From IMG/VR virus record IMGVR_UViG_3300042879_003909, positions 79,772-143,771 of that record: a stretch of 64,000 bases of DNA. The stretch is one strand, 5' to 3'. A program made the position numbers and the translations under genes. Below the pieces are notes generated by a model. That model saw only the letters and a list, made by a program, of their open reading frames with translations, made no database searches and was not told where the DNA came from. Source of the stretch: a virus. Taxonomy: Duplodnaviria; Heunggongvirae; Uroviricota; Caudoviricetes. This document shows, piece by piece, positions 2,637 through 47,511 of this stretch. Position 1 is the first letter of the stretch, and every line of letters begins with the position of its first letter.

Positions 2637-3035
2637 TTATTGCTGCTTCTTATACTTGTGCCAGCCGTTAAATCCTCGTTCTACATCCTTGTCTTCTTCA
2701 CTAGGACGCTTTGGGAACAGGTTATCGGTGCCATCATCAAGAACACCAAAGCTCTTCTTATACCACATAAGTTCGCCAGAAGTGACTACCTTTTCGAAGT
2801 ATTCGGCTTCCTTTTCCTTGCCCTTTTCATCAACATACTTAGCTTTACGCACTCGGTATGTTACATCTCCGCCAGACACTACCTTTTCTCCAATCTTGGC
2901 GGCAGGAGTATCTTCATAAATTTCTTGAAACCGGGCCAGTTTGCGAAACATTTCCTTGTCATTAGCCGCATCAAATTCAACAGTCATTCTTCCATCTTTG
3001 GTTGTGTAACTCAATTTCATTCTACATTTCTCCAA
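2637..3035 (-). CDS. hypothetical K/E-rich protein in a locally GC-elevated segment
   Basis: ORF with ~45% GC (hand count on 2640-2760) and AAG-preferring Lys codons, unlike the AT-rich glycosyltransferase genes; no motif recognised. Confidence 0.45.
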   Translation of the reverse strand: MEKCRMKLSYTTKDGRMTVEFDAANDKEMFRKLARFQEIYEDTPAAKIGEKVVSGGDVTYRVRKAKYVDEKGKEKEAEYFEKVVTSGELMWYKKSFGVLDDGTDNLFPKRPSEEDKDVERGFNGWHKYKKQQ

Positions 3036-3769
3036 TTCTTGTCATAACCCTTAAAACTATCAGGAGTAGGCTTGCTATTATTTTGAAAATCATTAATCAT
3101 AGTCAAAATATTAGAAGCTTCCTTCTTACTTACCTCATTAATATTTGTATATTTCTTAGATCCATTATTTAAAATAGACCAGACATTTAAATTTAGCTCT
3201 AGACATTTCTTATCCAAGAAATTAATCTGAGCGCTCGTAATCTTATCTTTGTCGCTAATTTCTCCGGTAGTAGCCACATCGACCTTAACGGTCGCTTTTA
3301 CTACTGCTTCTACGTCTTTCTTGCGGGTTAATTCTTCAGCAGCCAAGCATCGAATTTTTAGAGCTTTACGAAGGGCTCTACCTTCGGCCCTAGTAGACGC
3401 TGTAGCAACTGGATGGGCACAGAATAGATCGTCCGTGTTTCCGTGCCATACGTCGGCTACTTCCTTGTATGTTCTAGTTTGCTCTGTTCCAAGCCATTTA
3501 TCGAAAACAACTTCAAACACTACGGTAGCACGGCCGGGGCCATTTACATCCGTTGCTGCAAAAACTTGACATGGGCCACTATAAACAATATCGCCCAAGA
3601 TTTCTTCTGCTACACGCCTAAGTCCGGCACATGTAGGACTACCTTCTACAAGCTCGGTAGGATCGAAAAGACTCATTACATACTGGTGCCATTCTTTTGA
3701 TCCGTAGAGAGGACCAGATTGTTCTGACACGATTACATCACCACCAACATCAAACATTGTTTCTTCCAT
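3017..3769 (-). CDS. hypothetical protein with a GC-rich N-terminal domain (~3240-3769) and an AT-rich K/N-rich C-terminal tail
   Basis: 250-aa ORF whose composition changes abruptly mid-gene; no catalytic motif recognised. Confidence 0.45.
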   Translation of the reverse strand: MEETMFDVGGDVIVSEQSGPLYGSKEWHQYVMSLFDPTELVEGSPTCAGLRRVAEEILGDIVYSGPCQVFAATDVNGPGRATVVFEVVFDKWLGTEQTRTYKEVADVWHGNTDDLFCAHPVATASTRAEGRALRKALKIRCLAAEELTRKKDVEAVVKATVKVDVATTGEISDKDKITSAQINFLDKKCLELNLNVWSILNNGSKKYTNINEVSKKEASNILTMINDFQNNSKPTPDSFKGYDKNWRNVE

Positions 3770-3772
3770 TTT

Positions 3773-4516
3773 TTAAACCTCAATTAAACCAGACAACTTA
3801 CCAGACTCGATTTCCTTGATGACCTTACTAAGCTTGTTCCATGTATCTCTTTTGTTTTTTAGAGAACAGCTTTTCGCGCCATACTTAATTCTAACAACAT
3901 GGATGCCTTTTGACAAGAGCAATCCATTTTTTATTGTATCTTGTTTGATTGTCTTTTGCAATTTTTCTTCGCCAAAAATAGGCATAAAATGAAGAGGTCC
4001 ATCTATTTCTATAGCGACTTTTAGATCTTTCAAAAATAAATCGACCTTGTAATCTCCGCCTATATTGTCTTTATAGATAGTAACATTATATCCAGCAGAA
4101 GTCAACATTTTTCTTATATATTTTTCTATTTTGGAGCCATCAATAGAAGCTTTTCTAAGGGCTTCTCCGGCTTTTGTTTGCCTCTCATGTTTTTCATTAT
4201 CCGACAAAGACTCCCATCTTTCTTTCGCCATTTCTGAGAACTTTTCTTTTTTGTTTTTGGGCATCTTTTTCCATGCCGCATGTCTTTTTTCCGAGATTAA
4301 ATTTTTAGTACTTTCTTTAAGATTTTTGCCCCGGGTAGGATGGGCAGACCTGCCTCTAGCAATAGCTAGTGATTGAGACTCTTGATAGCTTCTTCTTTGA
4401 ATATTATGTTTTTTTAATATACGATAAATTTTAATCGGATATGTAGAAAATTCTTCCGCGATTTCCGGGACGCTTTTTCCAGATTCATATGCTTTAATTA
4501 TTTTAAGCTCATCCAT
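3773..4516 (-). CDS. free-standing endonuclease-like protein: N-terminal HTH plus C-terminal DUF559/Vsr-like endonuclease domain (putative homing endonuclease)
   Basis: C-terminal module DYKVDLFLKDLKVAIEIDGPLHF...GIHVVRIKYG matches the D-F/Y...IEIDG..H...RF pattern shared with ORFs 22185-23072 and 34862-35365; N-terminal helix-turn-helix-like segment (SVPEIAEEF..IYRILKK). Confidence 0.5.
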   Translation of the reverse strand: MDELKIIKAYESGKSVPEIAEEFSTYPIKIYRILKKHNIQRRSYQESQSLAIARGRSAHPTRGKNLKESTKNLISEKRHAAWKKMPKNKKEKFSEMAKERWESLSDNEKHERQTKAGEALRKASIDGSKIEKYIRKMLTSAGYNVTIYKDNIGGDYKVDLFLKDLKVAIEIDGPLHFMPIFGEEKLQKTIKQDTIKNGLLLSKGIHVVRIKYGAKSCSLKNKRDTWNKLSKVIKEIESGKLSGLIEV

Positions 4517-4964
4517 TTACTATCTCCAATAATTTACTTGATTGCCAGTCTGACATAATATCTTTTACTTTAATATTTGCATAGTTCTGTATCATATCTG
4601 CATGATCTATGCTTCTAGCCACAATTCTTATGGATGGGTCTCTTAGTATCCTCATATTTTCTTCAAAGTCTTGAGCAGACCTCAGCCATTCTAGATCGTA
4701 GAGATACAAATATTTCTTTGCTACGCTATTAATCTTCTTTAGCGTATTGGCTGTTTGTAAACTAGTGGCAAATATATGACCATCCCAATACGGCAAATAG
4801 TAGGAATTAATAATCGCAAAATTCATATTAATCGGGGGCGGTGCTAAATTGTGGTAAAAACAGCACGTAGACACCTTATTACTGGATAGTTTATTAAACT
4901 CTCTAATCATGAAATAAGAATTTTGAGAAATAGAAATGTCATCTAAAAATGAAGCTATTTTCAT
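4509..4964 (-). CDS. hypothetical protein (first gene of the glycan cluster)
   Basis: ORF only; co-oriented and overlapping its neighbours. Confidence 0.3.
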   Translation of the reverse strand: MKIASFLDDISISQNSYFMIREFNKLSSNKVSTCCFYHNLAPPPINMNFAIINSYYLPYWDGHIFATSLQTANTLKKINSVAKKYLYLYDLEWLRSAQDFEENMRILRDPSIRIVARSIDHADMIQNYANIKVKDIMSDWQSSKLLEIVNG

Positions 4965-6535: not shown

Positions 6536-6539
6536 ATTA

Positions 6540-7843: not shown

Positions 7844-7855
7844 TAAAATTCCTTA

Positions 7856-8521: not shown

Positions 8522-8525
8522 TCAA

Positions 8526-14425: not shown

Positions 14426-15068
14426 TTTTTAAATCCTTGACAGAGTCTATTTCTACTATTTGCATATTGTGTGGTTCATAACAATGAAAAGTTCCGCCTC
14501 TTTCGATTACCATATTAATAATTTCAAAAACAAATTTTTCATCAATTTTTTCCCAAATAATTTCTTTTAGTATTTTTAATTCTTTGCCAGTAAAAAAAGC
14601 TATTTGACACCATTTCTTTTTTAACCCATAGGATAGATTTGCAACTATATCACCATTAGTAACGATTCCTACCTCTTTATCATGTATTTGATTTTTTGTA
14701 TCAACTATTATGAACGATTTTTCTTTTGGTACATCAATTGTATCAACGTTAAACAATAGGTCGCCATGCATTACCAAAACAGAATCTACAGAATTTTTTA
14801 AGGCTAGTTTGATACCATGACTCGGATTTGTATTTATAAAATCTTTATTTTCTATAAATTTAATCTTGCTATCAGATAGTTTTTTGTTTAATTTACAGGA
14901 CTTATATCCTGTAACAACAGTGATATCTTTTCCAAAAGTTTTATGAACATTACTAATTTGGTAGTCTATTAATGTTTTTTCTTTTATTTTTAATAAAGAT
15001 CTAGGCTCATGGCTTTTCATGCGGGCGCAGACGCCAGCCGCTAAAATGATTGTTTGATTTTTTTTCAT
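14397..15068 (-). CDS. sugar-phosphate nucleotidyltransferase
   Basis: N-terminal TIILAAGVCARMKSHEPRSLLKI matches the NTP_transferase G-loop (ILAAGxGxRx..PK.L). Confidence 0.5.
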   Translation of the reverse strand: MKKNQTIILAAGVCARMKSHEPRSLLKIKEKTLIDYQISNVHKTFGKDITVVTGYKSCKLNKKLSDSKIKFIENKDFINTNPSHGIKLALKNSVDSVLVMHGDLLFNVDTIDVPKEKSFIIVDTKNQIHDKEVGIVTNGDIVANLSYGLKKKWCQIAFFTGKELKILKEIIWEKIDEKFVFEIINMVIERGGTFHCYEPHNMQIVEIDSVKDLKNEKIKNIDS

Positions 15069-15871
15069 ATTCTTTGCTGTAAAATCTTTGCATTTTCGTT
15101 AAAAATTTCCGTAGTCATTTTTAAAGATTGATTTTTTCCCGTCATTCTTACTAGTGATAACGACTCTGGAACGTGTTTCATTATACATACTTTCGAAAGC
15201 CTAAGCCATAAGTCATAGTCTTCGGTGCATCCAATAAAGCCTTTGCTTAATGGGCCATGTAGTCTAACATCATATGCATCTCCATTTTCCAGCAATACTT
15301 TTTCTAGATAGGACTTTCTTATTAGGGCCCCGGAATGAACTATGCATCTTTGCATCAATACGGAAGGACTGTATGGCTCCTTATATTCTCTTTTAATATA
15401 TCCGTCCTGAAATATATCATAGTCTCCATAAACCACCCCAACATTTGGATCACTCATTTGTGCTAGTAGTTTTTCTACCTTGTTGGGATAATAAATATCA
15501 TCTGCATCCAGTATGGCAAAAAAATCAGACGATGACCACAGTCGTTTAATCAATGTATTTCGGGCAGCAGAAGCGCCCTGATTTTCTGTATTTATATATG
15601 TAAAATTTGCGTTTGATATTATGTTAGGCTTTATAGACGTAGCTTGAGATAAAGAATAAATATAGCTCACTATCTCATTATGAGAATTATCTGTTGACCC
15701 ATCGTTAATAATCCCAACATGACAGCGATATGTTTGATTAAGGGCGCTTTTTATAGCATCAACCACCATGTCTCCATAATTGTAGTTAGCTATTATAATA
15801 GAAACTTTATTCATTAAAAATATCCTTCCAGTCTGATATACAATCTGGGTCTTCAGCCCGAAGTGACTCAA
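15065..15871 (-). CDS. glycosyltransferase family 2
   Basis: VSIIIANYNYGDMVVDAIKSALNQTY, INDGSTDNS and ILDADDIYY (DxD) motifs. Confidence 0.65.
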   Translation of the reverse strand: MSHFGLKTQIVYQTGRIFLMNKVSIIIANYNYGDMVVDAIKSALNQTYRCHVGIINDGSTDNSHNEIVSYIYSLSQATSIKPNIISNANFTYINTENQGASAARNTLIKRLWSSSDFFAILDADDIYYPNKVEKLLAQMSDPNVGVVYGDYDIFQDGYIKREYKEPYSPSVLMQRCIVHSGALIRKSYLEKVLLENGDAYDVRLHGPLSKGFIGCTEDYDLWLRLSKVCIMKHVPESLSLVRMTGKNQSLKMTTEIFNENAKILQQRI

Positions 15872-16610
15872 TTCTTTCTAGGAATGTTCTATTGTCTACT
15901 TCTCCATCTTCCATCATCTTGGGGCTATTTCCACCAATCAGCTTGTATAGTGCGGCCTGAATAAGAAATGTCCTGTTGTCTTTTTTGCTACAGTATACCA
16001 ATCGTTTCATTTGATTATTTATTCTATCATTTACTTTGGTAGTCAAGCTCTTAGATGGTATATCCGCTTCATCAAAAAATACTATCCAGCCATTTTTGCA
16101 AAAGCCAAGAGAATCATCTATTGCTTGATAGATATCATAGTCTGCGTCTGGTGGCATCAATATATTGTATTCAACAATCTTTTCATTTTTCGATAACGAT
16201 TCTAGTAGTTCAAAAATTTCTAAATTATATTCGGGCCTGTCATTTACCACAATAATAAATTTTCTAGAATAGTCTTGTTCATATAATGATTCAACTATTG
16301 ACTTAAAGGTATCCATATTATAATTAAATTTAATAATAATAGATAGCCTTGGCGAAACTTCTTTATTTACTACTTCTACAGCCTTTTGAATATCGTTTTC
16401 GCAATATTTTTCTAGCCATTCTACTGGCCTTCTTGCGTTACAAAATCTATTAAATGTAAAATAAGATATACCATCTTCTACTTCGGAATTATTATCTGGA
16501 TTTAATTTTTGTACACGCTTTAGCCTACAATCATACTGTGTATCTATGCCTTTAAAGCTAACATATTCGGCAAAAACACAGTCTTTACAAGAAAATTTAA
16601 TTTCGCTCAT
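15807..16610 (-). CDS. putative GT2-like glycosyltransferase with an N-terminal Cys-containing extension
   Basis: LSIIIKFNYNMDTF...IIVVNDRPE resembles a GT-A N-terminus; the rest is unassigned. Confidence 0.3.
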   Translation of the reverse strand: MSEIKFSCKDCVFAEYVSFKGIDTQYDCRLKRVQKLNPDNNSEVEDGISYFTFNRFCNARRPVEWLEKYCENDIQKAVEVVNKEVSPRLSIIIKFNYNMDTFKSIVESLYEQDYSRKFIIVVNDRPEYNLEIFELLESLSKNEKIVEYNILMPPDADYDIYQAIDDSLGFCKNGWIVFFDEADIPSKSLTTKVNDRINNQMKRLVYCSKKDNRTFLIQAALYKLIGGNSPKMMEDGEVDNRTFLERIESLRAEDPDCISDWKDIFNE

Positions 16611-17023
16611 TCCAATGTGCCCACTATAATTAAAGTAAAGTTTTTAATTTGCTTTTGATTAATTTTAAATCCGAGTCTATTTAATATATCAAAAATAAAA
16701 TCAGAACTAATAAAACTCTTTATTGATTGACCGCTGTGGAAAAAACAATCATTGAAGTCATTAAATGTTATAGAGCCCGTAGTCAACATATGAGATAATA
16801 GCTCGATATCTGTCAAATATAGTATCAATTTGCCGCCCTTTTTGATTTTAGAAGCGATTAATTGTAAAATATTTTCAATTTCTTTTAATGAAAATGAATG
16901 AAGTATATCGTCTACCATTATTTCTGTAGCTTCACCGTCATCAGCTATGATATTAAGTGAATTTGGACTATTTACCCATAGGCTATCTTCGTGGTCGTTG
17001 GTGTTACTAAAAGCTATTTTCAT
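16607..17023 (-). CDS. hypothetical protein
   Basis: ORF only. Confidence 0.3.
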   Translation of the reverse strand: MKIAFSNTNDHEDSLWVNSPNSLNIIADDGEATEIMVDDILHSFSLKEIENILQLIASKIKKGGKLILYLTDIELLSHMLTTGSITFNDFNDCFFHSGQSIKSFISSDFIFDILNRLGFKINQKQIKNFTLIIVGTLE

Positions 17024-18006
17024 GAATACAAAACCTCCTCAAAAACTGTGTTCCATTTATTTATAAACTGATTTAAATTATATTTTTCTTTAATTGTTTT
17101 TTGTGCATTTAAGCCAAGCTCTCTTGCACGACTCGGATTGTCTAGTAATTCTTGGCAGTATTTTTTTAACTCATTAGGGTTATTGCTAATTAGTCCGTTT
17201 TCTCCATGCTGTATAATTTCTGGTATCATACATGTAGCTGTAGATACAATAGCACAACCACACGCCATAGCTTCCATCATAGACATTGGTACGGGCGAAT
17301 GAATCGAAGTATTCAGAAATATGCTTGATTTATTATAAATATCTTTTAGTTCATCCAATGTTGTCGCCGCCTCCGAAAGCCCGGGATTTTTTCCCGCTAC
17401 TCTGATTGGTTTTTGTTGACTGGAATTAAAACTAACTACATCTTTCCATAGCTCCCATCCACAGGCCCAGTCTCGACTTGACCAATAATTCACAACAGAT
17501 AACAGCACATTATCTCTTTCTTTTTGTTCGTCTAGCCAAAAATCGGTATCCATACCATGATTAATAAACCTAGAATTATTTTTATTATAGCCCCAGCTAT
17601 TCATATTAAATTCTGAGATAAATGTAGTTAAATCTACTTTTACAGACTGAAACGCATATTTTTGCTGATCTAAATTGTATCTGATATCGGGCAAGACATG
17701 ACAGTGTCTAATGATTGGTATATTACAATACTCTTGAATATCTTGAGCTACATTAATTCTTTCATCAGACGTATGCACCAATATAAGGTCAAACTCTTGA
17801 TGATATGGTATTTGATTAATAATGTGATAATTTTCTGGCACTGGGGCGTATGAAGAATCCCACTCCTTTCCATTTTTTAAACAAAAGAAATTATGCCCGG
17901 TTTTACATAGATTGGATTCATATCTTTCGTGGGTTGCTCCAACAACTATAATATTTAGGGGTTTTTCTCTAGTTGCCTGTCTAATCAAAGATTTAAGTAA
18001 GTCCAT
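17020..18006 (-). CDS. GT4-family (GT-B) glycosyltransferase
   Basis: SMMEAMACGCAIVST...GENGLI (E-x7-E type motif). Confidence 0.6.
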   Translation of the reverse strand: MDLLKSLIRQATREKPLNIIVVGATHERYESNLCKTGHNFFCLKNGKEWDSSYAPVPENYHIINQIPYHQEFDLILVHTSDERINVAQDIQEYCNIPIIRHCHVLPDIRYNLDQQKYAFQSVKVDLTTFISEFNMNSWGYNKNNSRFINHGMDTDFWLDEQKERDNVLLSVVNYWSSRDWACGWELWKDVVSFNSSQQKPIRVAGKNPGLSEAATTLDELKDIYNKSSIFLNTSIHSPVPMSMMEAMACGCAIVSTATCMIPEIIQHGENGLISNNPNELKKYCQELLDNPSRARELGLNAQKTIKEKYNLNQFINKWNTVFEEVLYS

Positions 18007-19102
18007 TCAATATCTCCCGAATAATTTTCCCTACTGACTGATGACTAAATTTTTCTTTAGTTTCTTTAGAAAGTTTTTCTTTATTGCTTATAAGATAATC
18101 TTTATTTTCATAAACCGATCTCATGGTTGATCTTAAAGACTGTACATTGATATCTTCCCACATTTCTGCGGAACTTTGAATTTCTGGGAGGGCTTGCTGC
18201 ATACCAAAACAATCATCTATGCTAGACTGAATTCCGCAAGAGTTACTCATCGCATAAGTAGCTGTACCAGTATTATTGGTATAAATTAAATTTAATCCTA
18301 GAGCCTGCGCCTCTAATGCAGGAATGCAACAGGCTTCTCCGTGACTGGAACAAACAAAAGTATGACATTGATTAAGGATAGATATATAATCATCATTTTT
18401 CATATGTCCACAAATAACAGAAATGTTTTGGTATTTTTTTCTTATTTTAAGCCCGGACTTTATATATTCATTTAGTTTATTAAATTCTGCCATACAATGA
18501 TCGCTATTCATGTTTGAACTTAGTTTAATAAATAAATTAACCGGTTCTGCTGGATGAAACTCTGTATAGAATGCCCTTAGTAAGGCCGACAGATTCTTTC
18601 TATTATTCCACTCTCCAATAAAGCAAAAATTAAACACATTTTCTAGCTCGGATATCGACGCTGTTCTTTTGTTAATATTGTACTTTTCTGGATCAATGCT
18701 GTATGTTACAACATCAATAGGTATTGATACTTGGCTACGTATGGATGCTTCTTTGTTTTGATCGCACATTACCCAAGCTCTGTCTAGTAAATTTATATAT
18801 TTATGCCATTTACTAAAATAAAAATCTTGTGATTCAACACAATAAAACCCAACATTTTTAATTTTGGAATTATAGTAATAATGCTTTGGTAAACAGTGCT
18901 GAATACAAATACTTGCCCCTGTTACTTGTTTTTTTTCAAGGCTTTCTATGATTGGGTTAGTGCCTCTTTGTGGTCCGAAAGAAATAGCTCTTGGTACAAC
19001 ATCAATACCAACAGAGTGCATAGCTAAAATATTTGCTTCAGCCGCAGACCCCCAGCCCCCTACATCTTTATAATTCCCTATGTATAAAACTTTCATAAAC
19101 AA
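17993..19102 (-). CDS. GT4-family glycosyltransferase
   Basis: CSSHGEACCIPALEAQALGLNLIYTNNTG motif; N-terminus MKVLYIGNY...GGWG. Confidence 0.55.
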   Translation of the reverse strand: MFMKVLYIGNYKDVGGWGSAAEANILAMHSVGIDVVPRAISFGPQRGTNPIIESLEKKQVTGASICIQHCLPKHYYYNSKIKNVGFYCVESQDFYFSKWHKYINLLDRAWVMCDQNKEASIRSQVSIPIDVVTYSIDPEKYNINKRTASISELENVFNFCFIGEWNNRKNLSALLRAFYTEFHPAEPVNLFIKLSSNMNSDHCMAEFNKLNEYIKSGLKIRKKYQNISVICGHMKNDDYISILNQCHTFVCSSHGEACCIPALEAQALGLNLIYTNNTGTATYAMSNSCGIQSSIDDCFGMQQALPEIQSSAEMWEDINVQSLRSTMRSVYENKDYLISNKEKLSKETKEKFSHQSVGKIIREILNGLT

Positions 19103-20757
19103 TTCATCCTATGAGATTCCCATGTATTATAATATTCTCTTAGACTTACTATCTGCTTATAAGCATCTTGGTAGCTAAAAGCTTTCATTTTTAAAGCATC
19201 TTTATTATGGCTTTCATTAATATAATAAGAGCTTAAATTTTCTACTGTTGCCTTATATGTTAATTCTTTAAGCAGTCTTCTCCATAAAAAGCTGCCTAGC
19301 AATTCTGGCTTACATAAAACTTCGCATATTAAAAAATTAGCTTGATCGAGCGGTGACTTTAGCGATTCGTCTATTGCTTTTGGCTTTCTTATATCTGCCG
19401 GGGACTTCCATGTTTTACTATCTTCTTTTATATCACAAGACTTGAAATAGTCTATCCATCTAGAGGCGGTTTTATCCCAATTATAGCAAGATAATGTTTT
19501 TATGTACGTGTCTCTACCCATCTTTGTCAATTCTTCTTTTGTTTTTGACGTAAGATTATGTAAGATGCTAATAAAGTCCTCATTATCCGGCACTGCTCTT
19601 TTACATCCTGTCTCTGGCTCTAGAACAAATTCTTTGACCTTTATAGGAATAGCATTGATATTTTTAATAACAGAAGACATGGCCGAATAATCGATAGAGC
19701 ACAATACATTGCCACATTGGGCCGCTTCTAGTTGAGGCATACCAAAGCCTTCGCTGTTGGCGTATTGTACATAGATATCGAATACATTGTAGACTTTAGC
19801 TAATTCAGTTTCAGACAAAGGGTTATTAATGCCGCAAATACCAGCGGTGAAATTATTACATTTATTACAATATTTTACAATATCGCTAAAAAATGAACAT
19901 GTGATGTCGCTACATTTTGAACACTTGTAAGTAAATAAAACCTTATTAGTAAGACCGTTCTGTATTAATAAATTAGGTATATCCCATCCCACATCGGGGA
20001 AAGATGTATGACAATAAAGATAAACATCCTCTCTAGATGATTGGTCCAAGAATTTTCTAAACGAATAAAATAAATCTGGGTATAATTTGCGGCGCTGATT
20101 ACGCATGACTGTGCCAATAATATATGGGGCACCGTCCATACCAAAAGCACTTCTTAGTCTTGCCTTATCTTTAATTGGATAAAAATTATTAGAAGCACAC
20201 GGAGAAGCCACGGTAACAAAATTATTAAACTGCCCCTGTTTTCTTAATGTCTCTATACCAAACTCTGAATATGTAAAAATAGCATCGGCTTTAGAGTAAG
20301 TATCTATCCATTCTATGTTTTGTGGTTCGGCATCTACCGTAGGCATTAATGCTAGGTTATAAAAATTTCTAAATGGAGAACTTTGCTCAAATGAAACCAT
20401 CCAAAAATCTCTAATATCAAAAACAAAATTTGGCTTATAGGATAATAAGATAGAATTAAAAGAAAACTCCCCAAATTCTGCTGTGGGCGATTTTTTGTAT
20501 GCTTCAAATTCCGGCGTATTATTCTTCGGCTTATTAGCAAAAACCGTCCAAGGAACATTTTTGATCTTTGGATCATCTTCGCTACAATAGCATGCCAGCT
20601 CGGCAATTTCAAAGTCTTCAACTTGATTTAGTCTACTTAATACTTCTTTAGAATAAACAGAGTATCCAGTCGGTAGCTGTGAAAATTCTGTTACCATTAG
20701 TATCTTTTTTTTGGCCATAAAGTCTCCAATAAATAAAGGCCCGCTTTCACGGGCCAA
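19093..20757 (-). CDS. GT4-family glycosyltransferase with an inserted Cys-rich (zinc-ribbon-like) segment and a long C-terminal extension
   Basis: KKILMVTEF N-terminus; EGFGMPQLEAAQCGNVLCSIDYSAM motif; Cys cluster CSKCSDITCSFF..YCNKCNNF. Confidence 0.55.
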   Translation of the reverse strand: MARESGPLFIGDFMAKKKILMVTEFSQLPTGYSVYSKEVLSRLNQVEDFEIAELACYCSEDDPKIKNVPWTVFANKPKNNTPEFEAYKKSPTAEFGEFSFNSILLSYKPNFVFDIRDFWMVSFEQSSPFRNFYNLALMPTVDAEPQNIEWIDTYSKADAIFTYSEFGIETLRKQGQFNNFVTVASPCASNNFYPIKDKARLRSAFGMDGAPYIIGTVMRNQRRKLYPDLFYSFRKFLDQSSREDVYLYCHTSFPDVGWDIPNLLIQNGLTNKVLFTYKCSKCSDITCSFFSDIVKYCNKCNNFTAGICGINNPLSETELAKVYNVFDIYVQYANSEGFGMPQLEAAQCGNVLCSIDYSAMSSVIKNINAIPIKVKEFVLEPETGCKRAVPDNEDFISILHNLTSKTKEELTKMGRDTYIKTLSCYNWDKTASRWIDYFKSCDIKEDSKTWKSPADIRKPKAIDESLKSPLDQANFLICEVLCKPELLGSFLWRRLLKELTYKATVENLSSYYINESHNKDALKMKAFSYQDAYKQIVSLREYYNTWESHRMNCL

Positions 20758-21099: not shown

Positions 21100-22221
21100 C
21101 TAAATTTGACAAACTTTATCTACAATAAAACCATCTTTGCTATCTGAAGGTTTTCCAATAAGTATCACAGTATTTCCTTCGTATAGCATTTTTTTATACT
21201 GATCATAAGAATCTGGAAAAACAATAACGGAATCTAAAATAGCACTATGGTCTGAAACAGACAAGAATGCCATTTTTTTACCCTTATTCTTTCCCTCTTT
21301 CTTAATAACATACTCTCTCAATCCATTAATAGTAACACCAAGGTTAGCCGGGCCTTTAACAATTCCCTGATAAATTTCCTTACATTCTGCATTGATTATA
21401 TCAGTATCACCCATATCGCTAGCTGCACATGTCATCGGAATGCCCATATAGTATTCTTCTTTCTCTGCTATCCAAGAAGCGTGATCATTTAGATCTGTTG
21501 GAGGATTATCAAGTAGCTTTTTTATGCCCATTAGTATGTCTAATCTCGGTTTATTAACTTTAAAATTATGTATCAAAACGTTAATATGGTGAGATAAAGA
21601 TTCTGTATACTCAACATTATTCTTAATAAAATCTACCTCTCTTTGCGTGAGTTTTTTCCATGCATCATACTCAAATAACATCCTGTTTCTAGAAACAGTG
21701 TTTAGTTTATTATTAAAAATACCACACGATATCATGGCTATAAAAGCCCGCTTATTTATTTTATTAGCAAAATTACATAGTACCGATATCCAATCTAGCT
21801 CTTTAATAGTATTAGGCAGTAGAGACAATATTTTCTCTGATTCGGACTCGCCAATATCTTTCACTAAAGAAATACCAAAATAGATTTTATCTTTATGTAT
21901 AGTAAAATCTTTATATAAATTACCAAGCCTCGGTGGCAATACATCTACATTATGTATCTTGCTATCATATATCAAGCCCCGAATTTCTTCTTGAGTATCG
22001 GGCTTACGTCTAGCATGATTTAAATAAACTTCATAGAACTTGTGAATACTTTTTGCCTTACATAAAGCGCTCCAATAAGCGTTGAGTCCATAAGATACAG
22101 AATGTGAATTAGATACAGCTATGCCATCACCATAAAATATATGGTCTTCTGATCGCACCTCTATATCCATAGTTGGAATTATTCCTATTTTATTACATCT
22201 AATAATTTTTGCAGTATGCAT
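21100..22221 (-). CDS. dnaE: DNA polymerase III alpha subunit, C-terminal fragment, beginning with a 38-aa C-intein
   Basis: Begins MHTAKIIRCNKIGIIPTMDIEVRSEDHIFYGDGIAVSN / SHSVSYGLNAYWSALCKAKS, i.e. a C-intein (..HNF..GI.VSN) followed by the conserved DnaE (FNK)SHSxAY..YQTAWLK region; the rest resembles DnaE C-terminal/OB domains. Confidence 0.75.
   Translation of the reverse strand: MHTAKIIRCNKIGIIPTMDIEVRSEDHIFYGDGIAVSNSHSVSYGLNAYWSALCKAKSIHKFYEVYLNHARRKPDTQEEIRGLIYDSKIHNVDVLPPRLGNLYKDFTIHKDKIYFGISLVKDIGESESEKILSLLPNTIKELDWISVLCNFANKINKRAFIAMISCGIFNNKLNTVSRNRMLFEYDAWKKLTQREVDFIKNNVEYTESLSHHINVLIHNFKVNKPRLDILMGIKKLLDNPPTDLNDHASWIAEKEEYYMGIPMTCAASDMGDTDIINAECKEIYQGIVKGPANLGVTINGLREYVIKKEGKNKGKKMAFLSVSDHSAILDSVIVFPDSYDQYKKMLYEGNTVILIGKPSDSKDGFIVDKVCQI
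22108..22221 (-). mobile_element. split intein, C-terminal half (Int-C) of the fractured dnaE
   Basis: 38 codons ending ..GIAVSN with a +1 Ser; pairs with the N-intein at 23105-23389. Confidence 0.7.
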
Positions 22222-23072
22222 TCAATATCTCCTAGAATGTCTGATTCCCAAAATCTTATCAATTTTATATTATTATTTTTACAAAATTTATTTTTCTTAA
22301 TATCTCTAATGGCATTTCTTTTTTGCGTAGATGTTTTCGGTCCATCTTTGTATATCTTGGGATTACTGTGCCAATAATCTCCATCTATTTCTATACATAT
22401 ATTATAGTCAATGAGATAAAAATCAAAAGACCAATATTCGATTCTTTTTTCTTGTTCGTAGTTTATGTTATTGGCTTCTAATAAATCTTTAAATTTTCGA
22501 CATGGTAAAGTATCATTTTGTTTAAAAATGCCTTCTTTGATTAATCTTAATGTATTCTCTCTTAATTTCTGTTTAGTTTCTTCGGTATGTTTATGTCCAG
22601 TATGTCCATGTACAGATCTTTTTTTAGCTGACTCGCTTTGTTTTTGTTTAGTTTCTACTGACGGCTTTCTACCTATGGCTTTATCTGATATTCTTTTCAT
22701 TAAGTCAGAATTTTCTTTATTCAATCCGTTGTTCCAAGGTATTTTTCCAAACATCGGATTATTGCTTCCGACCCTATTGGTTTTTGCTTCTTGTGACCAT
22801 TTTTTTACACCTTCATTTAAACCACATGCTATCTTTTTATATCTAATATTAGAGCCATCTAATATGACCGTTAGTTTTTTATTGCACGCACCGCAAGGAC
22901 AGCTTGGGCCATATCCAAAATAGTCTGTTAAGGATAACTCATGACATTCTTCTATATGCTTTTTAAAACATTGAGATTTATAAACCCCTGTCCCTCCATA
23001 TTGTTTTACCATTTCTGATAAAGAATAATTACATATTTTACAAAACTCCCATTCTTTCTTTTCTATAATCAT
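22185..23072 (-). CDS. free-standing homing-endonuclease-like protein between the dnaE halves (zinc finger + NUMOD-like repeat + DUF559/Vsr-like endonuclease domain)
   Basis: CKICN...CFKKHIEECH zinc finger; GHTGHKHTEETKQKLRENT (NUMOD3-like GxxHSEETKxKIS); C-terminal DFYLIDYNICIEIDGDYWHSNP...IKLIRFWE (DUF559-type). It lies exactly between the Int-N and Int-C ends. Confidence 0.6.
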   Translation of the reverse strand: MIIEKKEWEFCKICNYSLSEMVKQYGGTGVYKSQCFKKHIEECHELSLTDYFGYGPSCPCGACNKKLTVILDGSNIRYKKIACGLNEGVKKWSQEAKTNRVGSNNPMFGKIPWNNGLNKENSDLMKRISDKAIGRKPSVETKQKQSESAKKRSVHGHTGHKHTEETKQKLRENTLRLIKEGIFKQNDTLPCRKFKDLLEANNINYEQEKRIEYWSFDFYLIDYNICIEIDGDYWHSNPKIYKDGPKTSTQKRNAIRDIKKNKFCKNNNIKLIRFWESDILGDIECILQKLLDVIK

Positions 23073-23101
23073 TAGTATGCCTCCTGTTAATAAAACCCAT
23101 A

Positions 23102-25786
23102 CTAATTATTATACACAATAATTTCATAACCTTGGTCTAAAATTTCATACAATGGCCGTGTTATAAAATCAGAGCATAGAAATTTATGATCTAGGGTACA
23201 TTTAATACTATGGCCCGAATCTGTTTCTATTTCATATACTTCTTTTTCGCCATTATGTATTATGTCTATTACTTCAACATAATGATCTTGTCCATTTTTA
23301 TTTGGTGCTAATATCATATCTCCTAGATTTAATTCGCACAACATCTTAATTTCATCTTTAGTATTAACCGTTGTCGTCGGGTCCAAGCATCGATTAAACG
23401 AATATCTGTTTGATGCTTCAATCCATTCAAAGATTTGTTCTGCCTCTTCTTTAGTTACAATGCCCTTTTTTTCAGCACCTTCAATAAAAGATATTTTAAC
23501 TTTAGCCATAAGATCAGCAAGTTTTTTACCCATAGCTTTACGCAAGTTATCGGCTTCTTGCTCTGTAAATCCAGCTATTTCTCTAGCTATCATCATACTT
23601 TGTTCTTGATAAACTAAAACGCCGTAAGTATCTTTCAGAATAGGCTCTAGGGCCGGATGAAAATACTTTACCTCATCCTTACCAGACTTGCGATCAATAT
23701 AGTGTTGTGTCATAGACTTGCCTTCAAAATAGGCATTCAGTGTGCCCGGCCTAATTAAAGCTACAAGGGCCGATCCTTCTTCCAGCATATGTGGCTGTAA
23801 TTTTTTAGTCCATGTTTTACCAAGCTGTGACTCAAGCTGAAAAACTCCTCTTGTATCGCCTTCGCACAATAATCTCCAAGTCTCTACGTCTTCCCAGTTG
23901 TCCAAGTCTATATTGGCATACTTAGCTATTTTATCAATCTTGCTTAAAATATCAACACCAAGAATATCAAACTTTACCTGACCAATAGATTCAAGATCGC
24001 CCATTTCAAAACCGGCTACCGGATTGCCTTCACTGTCGCGTACCATCGGACAAATATCCGCTAATGGAGAAGCGGCAATAATAATACCGGCAGCATGCTT
24101 GCCCTGCGATTTGTAGGTGCCTTCAACCTTAATTGCTTTTTCAAAAACATCTGCTAGATCGCCAATTAGTTTACCGTCTACTAAAGAGCACCACTTCTCT
24201 AATTTTTTAGGATTATTAATAAGCGCCCATCTAATAATAGACTTATCTTCCATTTCTTCTAATTCGTCAGAGATTTCAGCCTCGTCTGGAATATACTTTG
24301 TTATTTCATTCATTTCAGTAAATGAAACGATATCTTCTACTCTTAATACTTCCTTGACTGCTGATCTGCCCTGAAGTCTACCAAATGTAGCCATTTGAGA
24401 AACATTTTCATGTCCATATGTTTGTTTGATATATTCGATAACTTCGTCTCTATGTTCGGCTGGAACATCTACGTCAATGTCCGGCAAGCTACCCTTTCTA
24501 GAGCTATTATAAAATCTAGAGAACAAAAGCTTAAACGGAATAGGATCAATAGAAGTAATACCAACTAAATAAGATATTAAACAGCCAGCAGCACTTCCAC
24601 GGCCCGGGCCCGGTAGCCAGCCTTGTTTTCTTACCCAGTTGACAATATCTTGAACAATTAGAAAATAGCCAGATAGTCCAGCGTCTTTAATAATTTCCAA
24701 TTCTTCTTTGATTCTGTTTTCATATATGCTTTTAGATTCTTGTGTAGAGACTTTACCCTTTTTCACCAGTAGTTCTTGCCATCCTTTACGGCAAAGATGT
24801 TTTAAATATTCAAACTCGCTCATTCCATCGGGACAACTAAAATGCGGCAAAATAGGACTATTTAGAATGTTATATTCTTCGCACTTATCAACAATCTTTC
24901 CAGCATTATCTATCTCTTCCTGTGTATGCAAAGCTAATATTTCGCCCGGCGAAGGTATGTGATAATTGTCTGAAATAAAAAATCCTTTCAGTGGGACCTT
25001 TTCTTTCTTTTGTATCGCCCTGTTGATTTGTGGCATAGTCTTTTTTAACGCAGAACACAATAGAATTCTTTGATATACTGCGTCCGACTTATCTACATAA
25101 TGACTATCCGCAGTAGCTACAGTTTGAATATTATACTCGGCTGCTATTTCTCTCAAGCATTGGCCTATTACTTTTGCTGCATGTAGAACTTCTTGATCTA
25201 TTAGCTGAATCTCTAGATAAAAATCATTTCCAAAGATTTCTTGATGCAGCTTTATAACCTCATAACAAGACTCTTTCCAGTCTGGCCTTAAATAAGCCCG
25301 GGCTTCTTCATATGATTCTGCATCAAAAACATTATTAGAAAAGAATAAAGATTCAGATATAGCCGTGCCCGGATGACCACTAATGCAAATATGATTTCCA
25401 TTGCCAAGATTTTTCTTCATGATTGAATAGTCAATACGTGGCTTATAATAAAAATTATCTGGGTGATAACTTTCTGAAACACAGCGAATTAATTCCTTCC
25501 ATCCTTGTAGGTTTTTAGCTAATATAACAACGTGATTTAAGCCTTTATTTTCGGATGATCTATCTTTGGCATCTTTGCTTATATAAAACTCGCAACCCAG
25601 AATGGGTTTAATCCCACCCTTTTTACACTCGGAAAAAAAGTCTACGCAGCCAGATATGGAGCCATGATCGGTCAAAGCACAAGCCTTGTATCCATACTCT
25701 TTACATCGCTTGACCATGTCTTTTGGCTTACTATAACCGTCTAATAACGACAAGTGACTGTGGTTATGGAGAGACGCCCAATTCAT
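23102..25786 (-). CDS. dnaE: DNA polymerase III alpha subunit, N-terminal fragment (PHP + polymerase core), ending in a 95-aa N-intein
   Basis: PHP domain MNWASLHNHSHLSLLDGYSKPKD...ALTDHGSISG; polymerase core; the ORF terminates with ..ASNRYSFNR / CLDPTTTVNTKDE...TLDHKFL...EIIVYNN*, i.e. Hint blocks A (C-LD-T) and B (TLDH) with a stop after the N-intein. Confidence 0.85.
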   Translation of the reverse strand: MNWASLHNHSHLSLLDGYSKPKDMVKRCKEYGYKACALTDHGSISGCVDFFSECKKGGIKPILGCEFYISKDAKDRSSENKGLNHVVILAKNLQGWKELIRCVSESYHPDNFYYKPRIDYSIMKKNLGNGNHICISGHPGTAISESLFFSNNVFDAESYEEARAYLRPDWKESCYEVIKLHQEIFGNDFYLEIQLIDQEVLHAAKVIGQCLREIAAEYNIQTVATADSHYVDKSDAVYQRILLCSALKKTMPQINRAIQKKEKVPLKGFFISDNYHIPSPGEILALHTQEEIDNAGKIVDKCEEYNILNSPILPHFSCPDGMSEFEYLKHLCRKGWQELLVKKGKVSTQESKSIYENRIKEELEIIKDAGLSGYFLIVQDIVNWVRKQGWLPGPGRGSAAGCLISYLVGITSIDPIPFKLLFSRFYNSSRKGSLPDIDVDVPAEHRDEVIEYIKQTYGHENVSQMATFGRLQGRSAVKEVLRVEDIVSFTEMNEITKYIPDEAEISDELEEMEDKSIIRWALINNPKKLEKWCSLVDGKLIGDLADVFEKAIKVEGTYKSQGKHAAGIIIAASPLADICPMVRDSEGNPVAGFEMGDLESIGQVKFDILGVDILSKIDKIAKYANIDLDNWEDVETWRLLCEGDTRGVFQLESQLGKTWTKKLQPHMLEEGSALVALIRPGTLNAYFEGKSMTQHYIDRKSGKDEVKYFHPALEPILKDTYGVLVYQEQSMMIAREIAGFTEQEADNLRKAMGKKLADLMAKVKISFIEGAEKKGIVTKEEAEQIFEWIEASNRYSFNRCLDPTTTVNTKDEIKMLCELNLGDMILAPNKNGQDHYVEVIDIIHNGEKEVYEIETDSGHSIKCTLDHKFLCSDFITRPLYEILDQGYEIIVYNN
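23105..23389 (-). mobile_element. split intein, N-terminal half (Int-N) of the fractured dnaE
   Basis: 95 codons starting at Cys1 (CLDPTT) and containing the block-B TLDHKF motif; the gene stops immediately after it. Confidence 0.75.
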
Positions 25787-26475
25787 TTAATATACAACTC
25801 CTGCCCAGCAAAGGCTTTTTCAAACTTAGTTTTTGTCGCTAGTGTTCTATGATATTTCATAAACTTAATAAAAATATTTGCAGTATTCTTTACGTCTTGC
25901 AACGCATCGTGGGCATTTTCTATATTTGCTGATGGGAGTCCTAGATATTCTGATATCGCGGTTAGACTACGGCTTTTTATCTTATCGTTATCTTCAGTCC
26001 ATGTAAAGACCAAATCCATCAAATCTACTTTGAAAATTTTGTTAAATAGGTTCGGCCTTCCTTCTTTGTCCACTTGGCCATATTCTTTGCACAATCTATG
26101 TACAATAGGTAAGTCAAATCCATTAATGTTATAGCCGCACGGAATAGGTGCCGTAAAATCACTTTTCTTGTAATTAAATCTATTTACAAACTGAACAAAG
26201 CTATCCCAAGCTATTTTTAATGGCGTAGCATTAGCAAGCCCTTCTCTAGTTTTTCTGGTTATTTCTAAAGCTTTATCTTCAACTGGATCAAGGCCCGCAG
26301 CCACAGCTTTTTCGTCATCTAGGATTGGACGAATTTCTATGTTGAATATGCCGTTGGGCTCAATTGTTAATTTTCTGCTATGCAGAGCAATTGCTGCTAT
26401 CTGTGTAGGCTGACATTTATGAGGATTAGCACTTCCTGTTTCAAAGTCAAAAATTATGAATGTATTATAGTTCAT
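25783..26475 (-). CDS. dnaQ: DnaQ-like 3'-5' exonuclease (DEDDh; Pol III epsilon-like proofreading subunit)
   Basis: Exo I FIIFDFETGS; Exo II GYNINGFDLPIV; Exo III HDALQDVKNT. Confidence 0.8.
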   Translation of the reverse strand: MNYNTFIIFDFETGSANPHKCQPTQIAAIALHSRKLTIEPNGIFNIEIRPILDDEKAVAAGLDPVEDKALEITRKTREGLANATPLKIAWDSFVQFVNRFNYKKSDFTAPIPCGYNINGFDLPIVHRLCKEYGQVDKEGRPNLFNKIFKVDLMDLVFTWTEDNDKIKSRSLTAISEYLGLPSANIENAHDALQDVKNTANIFIKFMKYHRTLATKTKFEKAFAGQELYIK

Positions 26476-34414: not shown

Positions 34415-34875
34415 TGCTTCCTCTTAGATAGTTCTAACATAATATCGGACAATCTTTTAATATTTAATGCTTTATTTTCTAAAAGCTGAAATCTTAAAGA
34501 CGCTTCATTCTTTAAATTATATAATTTTTCTGCTAATGGATTTTCTCTGATAGCTAGGTTGTACTTCTTTTCATACTTAACATAGTTATCGCCATAATTA
34601 TCTATTGTTGGTGCCACGATATAGTTTATACTATTTGTAGCGTAATCTATAATTGCTTTTAATCTATTTGATTCTTTATTTATATAATCTGCATAGCTAC
34701 ACAAAACAAAAGATGAAGTAATTAAATCTTGAGAATTCATTTCTTTAATTTCTTCGTATGATAAGTTTATTACTTCTTCGCACTTATCATGATTAATTCT
34801 AGAAATATCTAATTTATTATCAGATATCCAAGAATCAATTTTTTGCATAAAATCAATTACATCATCTGGATTCAA
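34411..34875 (-). CDS. hypothetical protein
   Basis: ORF only. Confidence 0.3.
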   Translation of the reverse strand: MNPDDVIDFMQKIDSWISDNKLDISRINHDKCEEVINLSYEEIKEMNSQDLITSSFVLCSYADYINKESNRLKAIIDYATNSINYIVAPTIDNYGDNYVKYEKKYNLAIRENPLAEKLYNLKNEASLRFQLLENKALNIKRLSDIMLELSKRKQ

Positions 34876-35365
34876 TTTGCTGTCTCCATGTGTCTGGTTT
34901 ATCTTTATGATTTAAAACAATTAGACTTATTTGATTTTGTTCACACCATCTAATTTTGTCACAATCTCTTTTTTTTGCTTTTAAAAAATTAAACTTCTGT
35001 TTGTAGAAAAAGCTGCTATAAGAATAATGCTGTTCTCCATGAGCTTCTACCATTAAATTTCTATTTGGTATGTAAAAATCTACAGATAATTCTTTCTTGC
35101 CTTTCCAATCTCTGCTACCTATTAATTCTACTTCTTCCATAATTATATCAAACGGAAAAATTTCTTTTAGTAAAAGTTTTACATTTTGATGCAAGGAAGA
35201 CTTATTATCTAAGGCACTAGAACCTCTAGGCTTCCAATCATATTCTTTTCCATCTAATCCTATGATTTTCATAACATTAATTTGATTTCTTCCACTAATG
35301 CTTCGTATAGTCGTGGATTTTCTTTGATAAAGAAATATGTTTTTTCCGCCCCCTGAAACTTGCAT
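34862..35365 (-). CDS. DUF559/Vsr-like endonuclease-domain protein (third free-standing endonuclease paralogue); true start probably an internal Met
   Basis: SVDFYIPNRNLMVEAHGEQHY...CDKIRW...ISLIVLNH fits the DUF559 pattern (aDFy.p..kl.iEvDG.qH....d..Rd..L...G..vlRf); abuts the recA-like gene. Confidence 0.45.
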   Translation of the reverse strand: MQVSGGGKNIFLYQRKSTTIRSISGRNQINVMKIIGLDGKEYDWKPRGSSALDNKSSLHQNVKLLLKEIFPFDIIMEEVELIGSRDWKGKKELSVDFYIPNRNLMVEAHGEQHYSYSSFFYKQKFNFLKAKKRDCDKIRWCEQNQISLIVLNHKDKPDTWRQQIESR

Positions 35366-36411
35366 TTCTTGAGTGCTTCATCTGGCTCTTTATATGTATT
35401 ATCAGAATTTAGCTCAATCTCTGGAAAAATACTTTTCAATAATTCTGGTTTGTTGTAAAGAAAAGAACATGTCATCCAAGCCACAGCCTGAGAAATAAGC
35501 CCAGCTTCTTGACCCATGATTAGAATTTCTTGCACCTTATCAACACCATATCCATAGCGTACCCAGCTTTGGCATTCTGCCCCCGGCGGGCCCATAGAAG
35601 AGCACAATACCTTCCAGTTAATCGCCTGACCGATTTGCTGGTCGTCTTGTAGCCAAGGCTGAATAGACTTAACTTCCATTCGCGTATCTGCCTGATATTG
35701 AATCTTAACACCACCATCGGCCATTCTAGCAGCACCATAGCCGCTTGTATTGGTAATCATGTGAGTAATCAAAATCATTAGAGATTTCTGATTTGGTACA
35801 ATCTGTCCCATTTTCTTAGTAAAGTCCGAAAGTATTTTTGGTAAACCGGGCCTTGTCATTCCGTTGATTTCCTGCTCTAAGTCTCTTTGTGGAATTAAAG
35901 AAGAGACAGAGTCAATAATACAAACACAGCCTTCATTTTCTTTTGCTGAAACTAGTTTGGCAGCTATATCTAAAAACTCTTCTGCACTTAGAGGCTTTTC
36001 TTCCGCCCTAATTACAGTTACTTTTGCTGGATCTAATTCGCTTATTTCAAAGTTCATTTCTTTTAATCGGCCCTCAACATCTAAATATATGATATGACGA
36101 CCTTCTTTTTGACAATTTGCTGCAATTTGCATAGCAATTGTAGTTTTTCCAGACTTGCATGCTCCGCTCAACATAACCCAAGAGCCTTCTTTAATACCGC
36201 CGCTTAATGCTACGTCGATTACCGGGCTGACAGAAATAACCTTATAGTCTTTTCTTTTATCAAGTAGCTCTGTACCAGTTCTAATAACATCTCCATACTT
36301 TTTTGCAATTTCGGATAGTGTATTGCCTTCTGTTTTAGATACTTTAGTCTTCGCCATTATTATTCTCCAAATTTTTAAATTTTGCAAACATACTTTTTTT
36401 CTTGCTGGCAA
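35269..36411 (-). CDS. RecA-family recombinase (UvsX/RecA-like)
   Basis: Walker A VMLSGACKSGKTTIAMQIAA (compare RecA GPESSGKTT); Walker B IIYLDVEG; probable true start MAKTKVSK. Confidence 0.6.
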   Translation of the reverse strand: MPARKKVCLQNLKIWRIIMAKTKVSKTEGNTLSEIAKKYGDVIRTGTELLDKRKDYKVISVSPVIDVALSGGIKEGSWVMLSGACKSGKTTIAMQIAANCQKEGRHIIYLDVEGRLKEMNFEISELDPAKVTVIRAEEKPLSAEEFLDIAAKLVSAKENEGCVCIIDSVSSLIPQRDLEQEINGMTRPGLPKILSDFTKKMGQIVPNQKSLMILITHMITNTSGYGAARMADGGVKIQYQADTRMEVKSIQPWLQDDQQIGQAINWKVLCSSMGPPGAECQSWVRYGYGVDKVQEILIMGQEAGLISQAVAWMTCSFLYNKPELLKSIFPEIELNSDNTYKEPDEALKKCKFQGAEKTYFFIKENPRLYEALVEEIKLML

Positions 36412-47231: not shown

Positions 47232-47511
47232 CTGGTTTATCCTTTTTTACTAGAAGTGGAAAAATTTCCTCTAGTTTTTTTTCAGCTTCCGATAGATTAT
47301 TTTGTTTACATATATTTTTTAATTTTTCCCAACTAGAGACAATATCAGATAAGCTATCTTTTTTAGTACTATTGTCTAGTTCTATTACTTCATCAGAATT
47401 AGCCAAATTTTCTTTAACTGTATTTTGATTAAGCAATTTCTTAAAATCTATAAAATTGCTTGCGATAAATAAAGCCCCAAGAGCAATCGCTATGATTTGA
47501 ATCCAAGACAT
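47215..47511 (-). CDS. small membrane protein (holin or spanin candidate)
   Basis: N-terminal TM IQIIAIALGALFIASNFI followed by a charged tail. Confidence 0.35.
   Translation of the reverse strand: MSWIQIIAIALGALFIASNFIDFKKLLNQNTVKENLANSDEVIELDNSTKKDSLSDIVSSWEKLKNICKQNNLSEAEKKLEEIFPLLVKKDKPDEPAV

Follow-up and report, generated by a model that had tools for sequence, protein, structure and literature searches.

One polymorphic and two fixed genes for Vsr-like nucleases in an uncultured aquatic phage genome

Are nuclease genes that lie inside or against the conserved genes of a phage all mobile, or can copies of one fold meet different fates within a single genome? The question is raised by a stretch of caudoviricete DNA of 64,000 nucleotides (IMG/VR record IMGVR_UViG_3300042879_003909, positions 79,772 to 143,771), hereafter the window, in which three open reading frames (ORFs) are present on the minus strand: ORF1 (22185-23072), ORF2 (3773-4516) and ORF3 (listed as 34862-35365). 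A first-pass annotation had described them as three paralogous free-standing endonuclease genes with a common C-terminal module, an expanding lineage of homing endonucleases parked next to conserved genes like the seg/mob genes of T4. Our analysis makes it quite probable that ORF1 is a selfish, mobile homing endonuclease gene, and that ORF2 and ORF3 are fixed, vertically inherited genes of the phage lineage.

By its sequence, the ORF1 locus is a fractured gene, in which dnaE is broken by a split intein along with a gene for a free-standing endonuclease; the first-pass annotation had likewise placed ORF1 inside a fractured dnaE. The parts follow one another on one strand in the order N-extein, N-intein, spacer, ORF1, C-intein and C-extein (Table 1). 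The N-extein matches the Pfam families PHP, DNA_pol3_alpha and DNA_pol3_finger, and it aligns to phrog_405 as far as profile position 793, where the C-half resumes and covers positions 793-1068. In Pfam, the N-intein half is recognized by Hint (E 2e-7) and Intein_splicing (E 4e-5). When the two intein halves are fused, they match the Npu and consensus DnaE split inteins (E 1e-7) as well as the gp41-1 intein (E 1.6e-6), in each case across both halves. The residues associated with splicing are present, i.e. Cys1, the TLDH of block B, the C-terminal Asn (...AVSN) and Ser as the +1 nucleophile, and the insertion point is the conserved FN(K/R)↓SH motif of dnaE, where the arrow marks the junction. 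This anatomy suggests that the two DnaE halves could be joined by trans-splicing and that ORF1 may be capable of homing.

The expression of ORF1 seems to be restrained. It is preceded by a spacer of 29 nt (23073-23101) containing an AGGAGG ribosome-binding site (RBS), and spacers of 27-51 nt have been reported before fractured-gene endonucleases (PMC2677866). Spacer and RBS lie in a hairpin with a folding energy of -8.7 kcal/mol (z -3.6), and only 1 of 200 shuffled sequences folds as well. The 5' hairpin is comparable in one homologous locus (L106) and weaker in three others (L034, L103 and L107). Hairpins of this kind have been reported for fractured-gene endonucleases (PMC2677866), and the one found here, extending over the RBS, probably limits the translation of ORF1. 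Sigma-70 promoters and terminators predicted around dnaE are not more numerous than in shuffled sequence.

ORF1 has the composition expected of a DNA-targeting nuclease of the homing type. Two Cys/His clusters occupy residues 11-83, NUMOD3-type repeats residues ~100-172 (Pfam NUMOD3, E 8e-5, 22.9 bits against a cut-off of 20.4), and the nuclease domain residues ~184-295. The protein matches the catalytic domain of I-Bth0305I (PDB 3r3p, E 5e-5), DUF559 (E 4e-4) and the TIGR00632 vsr model (E 4e-5). Its family comprises at least 364 homologue clusters at 90% identity, all of ~295-310 aa, in which C11/C14/H39/H44 and C58/C60/C63/C83 are invariant besides the catalytic set given below.

The ORF1 element is polymorphic at the dnaE site. 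A first set of 45 related dnaE loci was fetched via N-terminal DnaE peptides, independently of the insert; 42 of them reach the junction, and 40 of these 42 are uninterrupted, with a gap of 0 nt and the same frame. A second scan, the ranking of which favours uninterrupted alleles, yielded 80 further uninterrupted loci and a total of ~120. In the 120 uninterrupted loci the extein gap is 0 nt and the junction reads ...FNK↓SH..., and four uninterrupted loci share contigs with ORF2 orthologues. The comparison with alleles lacking the gene, which the first-pass annotation had proposed for each of the three copies, is thus available for ORF1. The occupied state is seen at the same dnaE site of L034, where the N-intein, the ORF1 homologue and the C-intein are 46%, 54% and 63% identical to those of the window, respectively. 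Exactly at the FNK↓SH junction of L027 lies a contiguous intein of 272 aa (L027:8946-9761) with an HNH motif (CNRC...HHKDGN...CVSCH), so that the allele here is an intein bearing another type of nuclease. Three ORF1 homologues with 47-54% identity are all placed between an ORF composed of DnaE finger plus Hint and the DnaE C-half. At the DNA level, the dnaE target region is highly conserved, strongly so at first and second codon positions.

Other features of dnaE in this lineage deserve mention in their own right. At residue 397 of DnaE, an insert of ~400 aa with intein similarity is found in L053, L055 and L059, and at residue 685 an insert of ~750 nt in L034, L037 and L050, so dnaE appears to be a hotspot for selfish elements in the lineage. 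Furthermore, the lineage has two organizations of the polymerase and exonuclease genes. In ~125 related loci (L017-L061, L109-L188), dnaE consists of two ORFs, covering residues 1 to ~620 and ~625 to the end, between which sits an RNase T/epsilon-like exonuclease gene, with no intein detected there; in the window, instead, the exonuclease gene lies upstream (25783-26475) and DnaE 1-799 is found in one ORF (23102-25786).

The relation of ORF1 to the other two ORFs is evident from profiles. Direct BLASTP comparisons among the three proteins are marginal (E 0.02, 0.024 and 0.13; 23-26% identity). All three match the PHROG endonuclease families phrog_559, 9084 and 4538 in the same profile region with E values of 1e-12 to 1e-15, and family profiles built from orthologues (alignments A5 for ORF1, A4 and A7 for ORF2, A3 and A6 for ORF3) give E values of 1.7e-5, 3.6e-7 and 2.2e-5 between the three families in hhalign. 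Each family hidden Markov model (HMM) ranks the other two ORFs next-best among the 480 stop-to-stop ORFs of the window. Neither the module HMMs nor the family HMMs revealed a fourth copy among these 480 ORFs; a borderline candidate at 47218-47514 (E 0.034) was discarded, its match having vanished with better profiles.

The putative catalytic residues are D217/E228/D230/H235/D257 in ORF1, D159/E170/D172/H176/D193 in ORF2 and D65/E76/H78/H82/D103 in ORF3 (numbering of the 136-aa protein), and those of each ORF are invariant or nearly so in orthologue alignments of 25-26 sequences. Judged from these alignments, the EDxHD composite set, i.e. Asp, Glu, a variable position, His and Asp, is kept in all three. 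A PDB search with the narrow family profiles of ORF2 and ORF3 returned weak matches only (AbaSI, E 0.15; 3hrl, E 0.5), so that a comparison of folds was needed for their assignment. The C-terminal domain of all three is a Vsr/DUF559-like PD-(D/E)XK fold.

The first-pass annotation is therefore borne out with regard to the shared module (common PHROG families; profile-profile E values of 4e-7 to 2e-5), its motif pattern, which coincides with the catalytic residues, and its fold, given the matches to 3r3p, DUF559 and vsr. The N-termini do vary as described, with two Cys/His clusters and NUMOD3 in ORF1 and a weak helix-turn-helix (HTH) signal in ORF2. Two outcomes that the annotation had named as adverse, i.e. 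the lack of any nuclease fold and modules that cannot be aligned, were checked, and the modules proved to be homologous and of a nuclease fold. The notion of a paralogous family has to be narrowed: the domain is homologous, but the genes are not recent duplicates, considering their 23-26% identity and differing architectures. Their relationship is that of a common ancient domain, not of a recently duplicated gene family.

ORF2 is fixed in a module of three genes. Its loci were found via the downstream neighbour, independently of ORF2 (neighbour 36-82% identical), and in all 35 of them a full-length ORF2 orthologue with 38-75% identity is enclosed by the same pair of genes. Two genomes of greater divergence, in which the neighbour is 38-44% identical, retain the triad as well (A4 HMM, E 1e-104 and 7e-96). 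Among pairs whose synonymous divergence is unsaturated, the ratio of nonsynonymous to synonymous substitution rates (omega, Nei-Gojobori) ranges from 0.01 to 0.06, with a median of 0.04, and the pairwise identities of ORF2 correlate with those of its neighbours (r 0.67-0.88). The upstream stop codon and the start of ORF2 overlap (ATGGATGA), and 3 nt separate the ORF2 stop from the ATG that follows. Conservation extends along the entire protein, including the HTH, the NUMOD3-like segment and the tail KRLIE(L/I)E, although the HTH matches are weak and below threshold (E 0.015-0.03); the structure model is helical in that part.

Two segments of ORF2 attracted our attention. The C-terminus (window 3773-3800; A4) ends in the tail FPPK.KRLIE(L/I)E(I/V)S, GLIEV in the window, and has the look of a short peptide by which a partner protein could dock. 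The helical linker (window 4200-4380, residues ~45-105) resembles HMG boxes weakly (PDB HMGB1, E 0.14; Pfam HMG_box_2, E 0.22), which may be due to chance or may hint at a DNA-bending module. The downstream gene at 3017-3769 belongs to a family of 1492 representatives at 50% identity, with lengths of 132-373 aa among the best 150 listed and a nearly invariant core (VADVWHGNTDDLFCAHPVATASTRAEGRALRKAL); its product has no match in Pfam, PHROG, NCBIfam or PDB. A Rad52-like annealing protein, which one motif had brought to mind, is not claimed, the searches of Pfam, PHROGs, NCBIfam and PDB being empty. We also considered whether ORF2 splits a gene without an intein, as with SbcD (Dassa 2009), and rejected this because the N-terminal extensions of the downstream family are unlike the upstream gene.

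ORF3 is equally constant in its position. Its true start is Met32 of the listed ORF, at 35272 (MKIIGLDG), on which the gene callers and all orthologues agree. It does abut and overlap recA, as first described; however, it adjoins the 3' end of recA rather than its start, since all the genes are on the minus strand, and the real ORF is 34862-35272. The ATG of ORF3 shares bases with the stop codon of recA (ATGA), in place of which distant orthologues have TTGA. All 13 loci that reach far enough (recA 55-85% identical) have ORF3 next to the 3' end of recA, and in the most distant homologue it lies ~1 kb downstream of recA, still inside the recA-to-DnaB block. The median omega is 0.07. The recombinase itself matches Pfam RecA over the whole model (E 7.5e-25) and phrog_97 (UvsX-like). 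A recA gene broken by ORF3 was ruled out, as the alignment to the RecA model is complete and the protein is of normal length.

Table 1. Positions of the three nuclease genes and the adjoining features in the window
Feature	Position	Strand	Description
Downstream neighbour of ORF2	3017..3769	-	conserved gene, large family
ORF2	3773..4516	-	247 aa: N-terminal HTH, NUMOD3-like helical linker, C-terminal Vsr-like nuclease, acidic-hydrophobic tail
Upstream neighbour of ORF2	4509..4964	-	conserved gene; orthologue in 35/35 loci and 2 distant genomes
dnaE C-extein	21100..22107	-	begins SHSVSYG...; Pfam HHH_6 and tRNA_anti-codon (OB fold)
C-intein half	22108..22221	-	38 aa, ends ...GIAVSN; 37-nt overlap with the end of ORF1
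ORF1	22185..23072	-	295 aa, predicted free-standing Vsr-like/EDxHD homing endonuclease gene
Hairpin with spacer and RBS	23071..23106	-	spans the upstream stop codon to the first bases of the ORF1 AUG
N-intein half	23102..23389	-	95 aa, Cys1 start (CLDP...), TLDH block B, then stop codon
dnaE N-extein	23390..25786	-	DnaE residues 1-799: PHP, polymerase core, fingers; ends ...NRYSFNR
ORF3	34862..35272	-	136 aa, single-domain Vsr-like nuclease, without separate DNA-binding module
recA/UvsX-like recombinase gene	35269..36411	-	intact; likely start Met at 36360

With regard to ORF1, we suppose that the zinc-finger and NUMOD3 region would bind the uninterrupted dnaE allele of a co-infecting relative, and that the Vsr-like domain would cut near the insertion point. 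Recombinational repair could then copy the ORF1 gene and both intein halves into the broken allele, and protein trans-splicing of the two halves would restore DnaE function.

ORF2 and ORF3 seem to be of another nature. The same position in every locus, omega values of ~0.04-0.07 and translational coupling imply that they are core genes, situated in the lineage's replication and recombination region, rather than mobile genes of the seg/mob type; since neither shows mobility, and ORF3 departs in architecture as well, we do not file them as homing endonucleases. Most likely they work for the phage as regular genes, possibly domesticated ones. ORF3 may be a small structure- or lesion-specific DNA nuclease that is co-expressed with the RecA-like recombinase, and ORF2 a sequence-directed nuclease or nickase kept from a homing-endonuclease-like ancestor. 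We hold more tentatively, as a possibility that falls somewhat short of an even chance, that both are domesticated EDxHD members which now act in replication and recombination as core enzymes of an uncultured aquatic phage lineage that is widespread. ORF3 would then cut recombination intermediates or nick mismatches or lesions while being made together with the RecA-like recombinase, and ORF2 would act as a sequence-directed nuclease within the conserved three-gene module. If so, we know of no earlier case in which a Vsr-like homing fold has become an essential phage gene.

Several points weigh against this interpretation. DNA cleavage by ORF1, ORF2 and ORF3 is predicted only, and the roles proposed for ORF2 and ORF3 derive from gene context only. 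The penultimate intein residue is Ser instead of His, which speaks against splicing; it is nevertheless weak evidence, because the efficient Npu DnaE intein has it too. Presence and absence were scored on metagenomic contigs fetched by short peptide patterns, in addition to the bias of the second dnaE scan described above. Finally, ORF2 is still built from the full set of homing-endonuclease modules (HTH, NUMOD3-like segment and nuclease), and the GC content at third codon positions (GC3) is below that of the neighbours not only in ORF1 and the N-intein but also in ORF3, so that ORF2 and ORF3 could conceivably have been selfish once or be so now.

These last two observations are also what favours the best surviving alternative, namely that ORF2 and ORF3 are fixed yet selfish, being old free-standing homing genes that do not serve replication or recombination but persist because their products cut satellites or, in marker exclusion, competitors from beyond the sampled lineage. 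Homing endonucleases of ICP1 phages have been repurposed against satellites, which bears on this idea. In addition, nuclease genes that persist at recombination boundaries of phages have been described (PMC10448857). We nevertheless regard this alternative as unlikely: strong purifying selection over the whole protein and operon-like coupling fit better with a function needed in every infection, and a target allele devoid of the ORF is encountered in none of the 35 ORF2 and 13 ORF3 loci.

A second alternative concerns ORF1, which might be an inactive relic, vertically inherited and either decaying or kept as a spacer between the intein halves. The scarcity of the element in the unbiased dnaE loci (1 of the 42 that reach the junction) and an activity that is predicted only would be compatible with it. 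However, a decaying gene is hardly reconciled with at least 364 clusters of nearly uniform length (~295-310 aa) in which zinc ligands and catalytic residues are invariant, with homologues of 47-54% identity that hold the same site in diverse phages, or with the conserved 5' regulatory hairpin and RBS. We consider a relic very improbable, and return to ORF1 as a mobile homing endonuclease gene.

The least probable reading, by a narrow step, is that all three are active mobile homing endonucleases of one expanding lineage beside or inside their target genes: although the nuclease domain common to them is that of a known homing family, ORF1 is clearly mobile, ORF2 has a homing-endonuclease-like architecture and ORF3 abuts recA, the gene targeted by the prototype I-Bth0305I (PMC3239194), loci lacking ORF2 (0 of 35) or ORF3 (0 of 13) are absent from the independently found sets and from the more distant genomes, omega is 0.04-0.07 over divergences at which synonymous sites are saturated, both genes are translationally coupled to their neighbours without a spacer or RBS cassette of their own, and the modules are only 23-26% identical, with no DNA-recognition domain in ORF3. 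The picture of parked homing endonucleases thus holds for ORF1, for which empty alleles exist (~120 ORF1-less dnaE loci), but not for ORF2 and ORF3, whose sites are filled in 35/35 and 13/13 loci and for which no locus lacking the gene was found among these. That of an expanding lineage in this genome is not supported, given the low identity of the modules, their differing architectures and the fixation of two of the three.

The less expected result of this work is that a genome with one polymorphic Vsr-like nuclease gene also has two that are fixed and under strong constraint, so that it offers a contrast of selfish and, presumably, domesticated Vsr-like copies. To our knowledge, the EDxHD fold has so far been known only from selfish elements and bacterial Vsr; if ORF2 and ORF3 do serve the phage, the fold would also be that of a regular phage recombination or replication enzyme. 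The fractured dnaE, with its many empty alleles and an alternative HNH intein, may help in the mining of split inteins, and the FNK↓SH hotspot may help in studying exchange among inteins, split inteins and free-standing endonucleases.

With a GC content of 34%, the window is AT-rich, and nearly all of its genes are on the minus strand. It encodes a ribonucleotide reductase, a DnaB-like helicase, a primase, a PD-(D/E)XK exonuclease and an RNase T-like exonuclease, along with DnaE, SSB and the RecA/UvsX-like recombinase, composing a replication and recombination region of the phage type. Its proteins recur on metagenomic contigs as large as ~158-165 kb, and the window is part of an uncultured aquatic phage genome of ~160 kb. 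No cultured phage matched the dnaE region in Megablast, and tblastn for cultured relatives of ORF2, ORF3 and recA gave only domain-level matches or matches of at most 30% identity; with a close cultured match absent, there is no cultured relative from which annotation could be transferred.

Further genes of the window and its relatives may be recorded here. A run of ~18 glycan-synthesis genes (~16 kb; 4966-20757, minus strand) lies between SSB and ORF2 and includes GT25, an FkbM methyltransferase, a GT10 fucosyltransferase, a TcdA/B-like glycosyltransferase, an NAD epimerase/dehydratase and enzymes of the GT1, GT2 and GT4 types. Its composition differs between relatives, L064, for example, being devoid of homologues of 4966-6535. 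An ORF of 583 aa at 38455-40206 shows PhoH-like matches in its C-terminal part (residues 318-580), and its N-terminal part matches DnaC-like loader, primase and terminase ATPase families, which is an unusual fusion. One related contig, L005 (IMGVR_UViG_GVMAG-S-3300005662-70_000001), belongs to a bin that bears the label of a giant-virus metagenome-assembled genome, yet what it encodes (RecA-like and neighbours) is phage-like, and it may be a mis-binned phage contig.

The Vsr-like nucleases of fractured genes are not new as a kind. Fractured genes and this nuclease family, including three dnaE loci (DnaE-1 to DnaE-3), were described in 2009 (PMC2677866), and I-Bth0305I, which is encoded in a recA intron and cuts DNA, was characterized in 2011 with the structure of its catalytic domain, when the family was named EDxHD (PMC3239194). 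The Vsr-like fold of free-standing homing genes was therefore already established by these two studies (Dassa 2009; Taylor 2011), contrary to the novelty implied at first pass, and ORF1 is an additional example of an already described fractured-gene endonuclease. It shares with the EDxHD family a NUMOD-type N-terminal DNA-binding region, a C-terminal Vsr-like domain, the D...E.x....H...D set and the lack of the Vsr zinc site, and it too is free-standing within a replication gene that is interrupted, with relatives differing in whether they carry it. ORF2 and ORF3 have the catalytic domain and residues in common with the family; those of I-Bth0305I are D196/N208/H213/D222 (PMC3239194), their mapping onto the ORFs of the window relying on the 3r3p alignment. 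Unlike the prototype, ORF1 adds two N-terminal Cys/His clusters, ORF2 has an HTH and a NUMOD3-like linker and is fixed, and ORF3 is fixed and devoid of a DNA-binding module. The fractured genes of Dassa (2009) resemble the window in the order of parts, the spacer (29 nt in the window), the overlap with the C-half, the 5' hairpin, the host gene dnaE and the environmental phage source, whereas the window offers a much longer contig as context and many alleles for comparison.

The split intein resembles those of Ssp and Npu DnaE in its host protein, homologous halves, split position and ...SN end. It differs in that the +1 residue is Ser, not Cys, and in that its halves, instead of lying at distant loci, are adjacent and enclose the endonuclease gene. 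We take the Ssp/Npu junction to be ...EY↓CFNKSH, which puts FN(K/R)↓SHS of the window a few residues downstream.

By comparison with E. coli Vsr, the NCBIfam vsr model (TIGR00632) gives 24 bits for ORF1 and 21.8 bits for ORF2 against a cut-off of 97.85, and does not match ORF3. The zinc-binding Cys/His cluster around the catalytic His is found in none of the three, and the Phe-Trp intercalation pair is missing from ORF2 and ORF3, ORF1 alone keeping an aromatic pair (YWH); the ORFs are also not known to have a Dcm context. On these sequence features, none of the three ORFs qualifies as a Vsr mismatch repair endonuclease. Like the T4 seg/mob genes, ORF1 is polymorphic and stands free beside or within a conserved gene; unlike those genes, which are GIY-YIG or HNH nucleases, it has a Vsr-like fold and would rely on a split intein to keep the host gene functional. 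For ORF2 and ORF3 the closer parallel in T4 may be endonuclease II, a GIY-YIG nuclease of homing-type fold kept as a regular phage gene, which we propose, by analogy, as their precedent.

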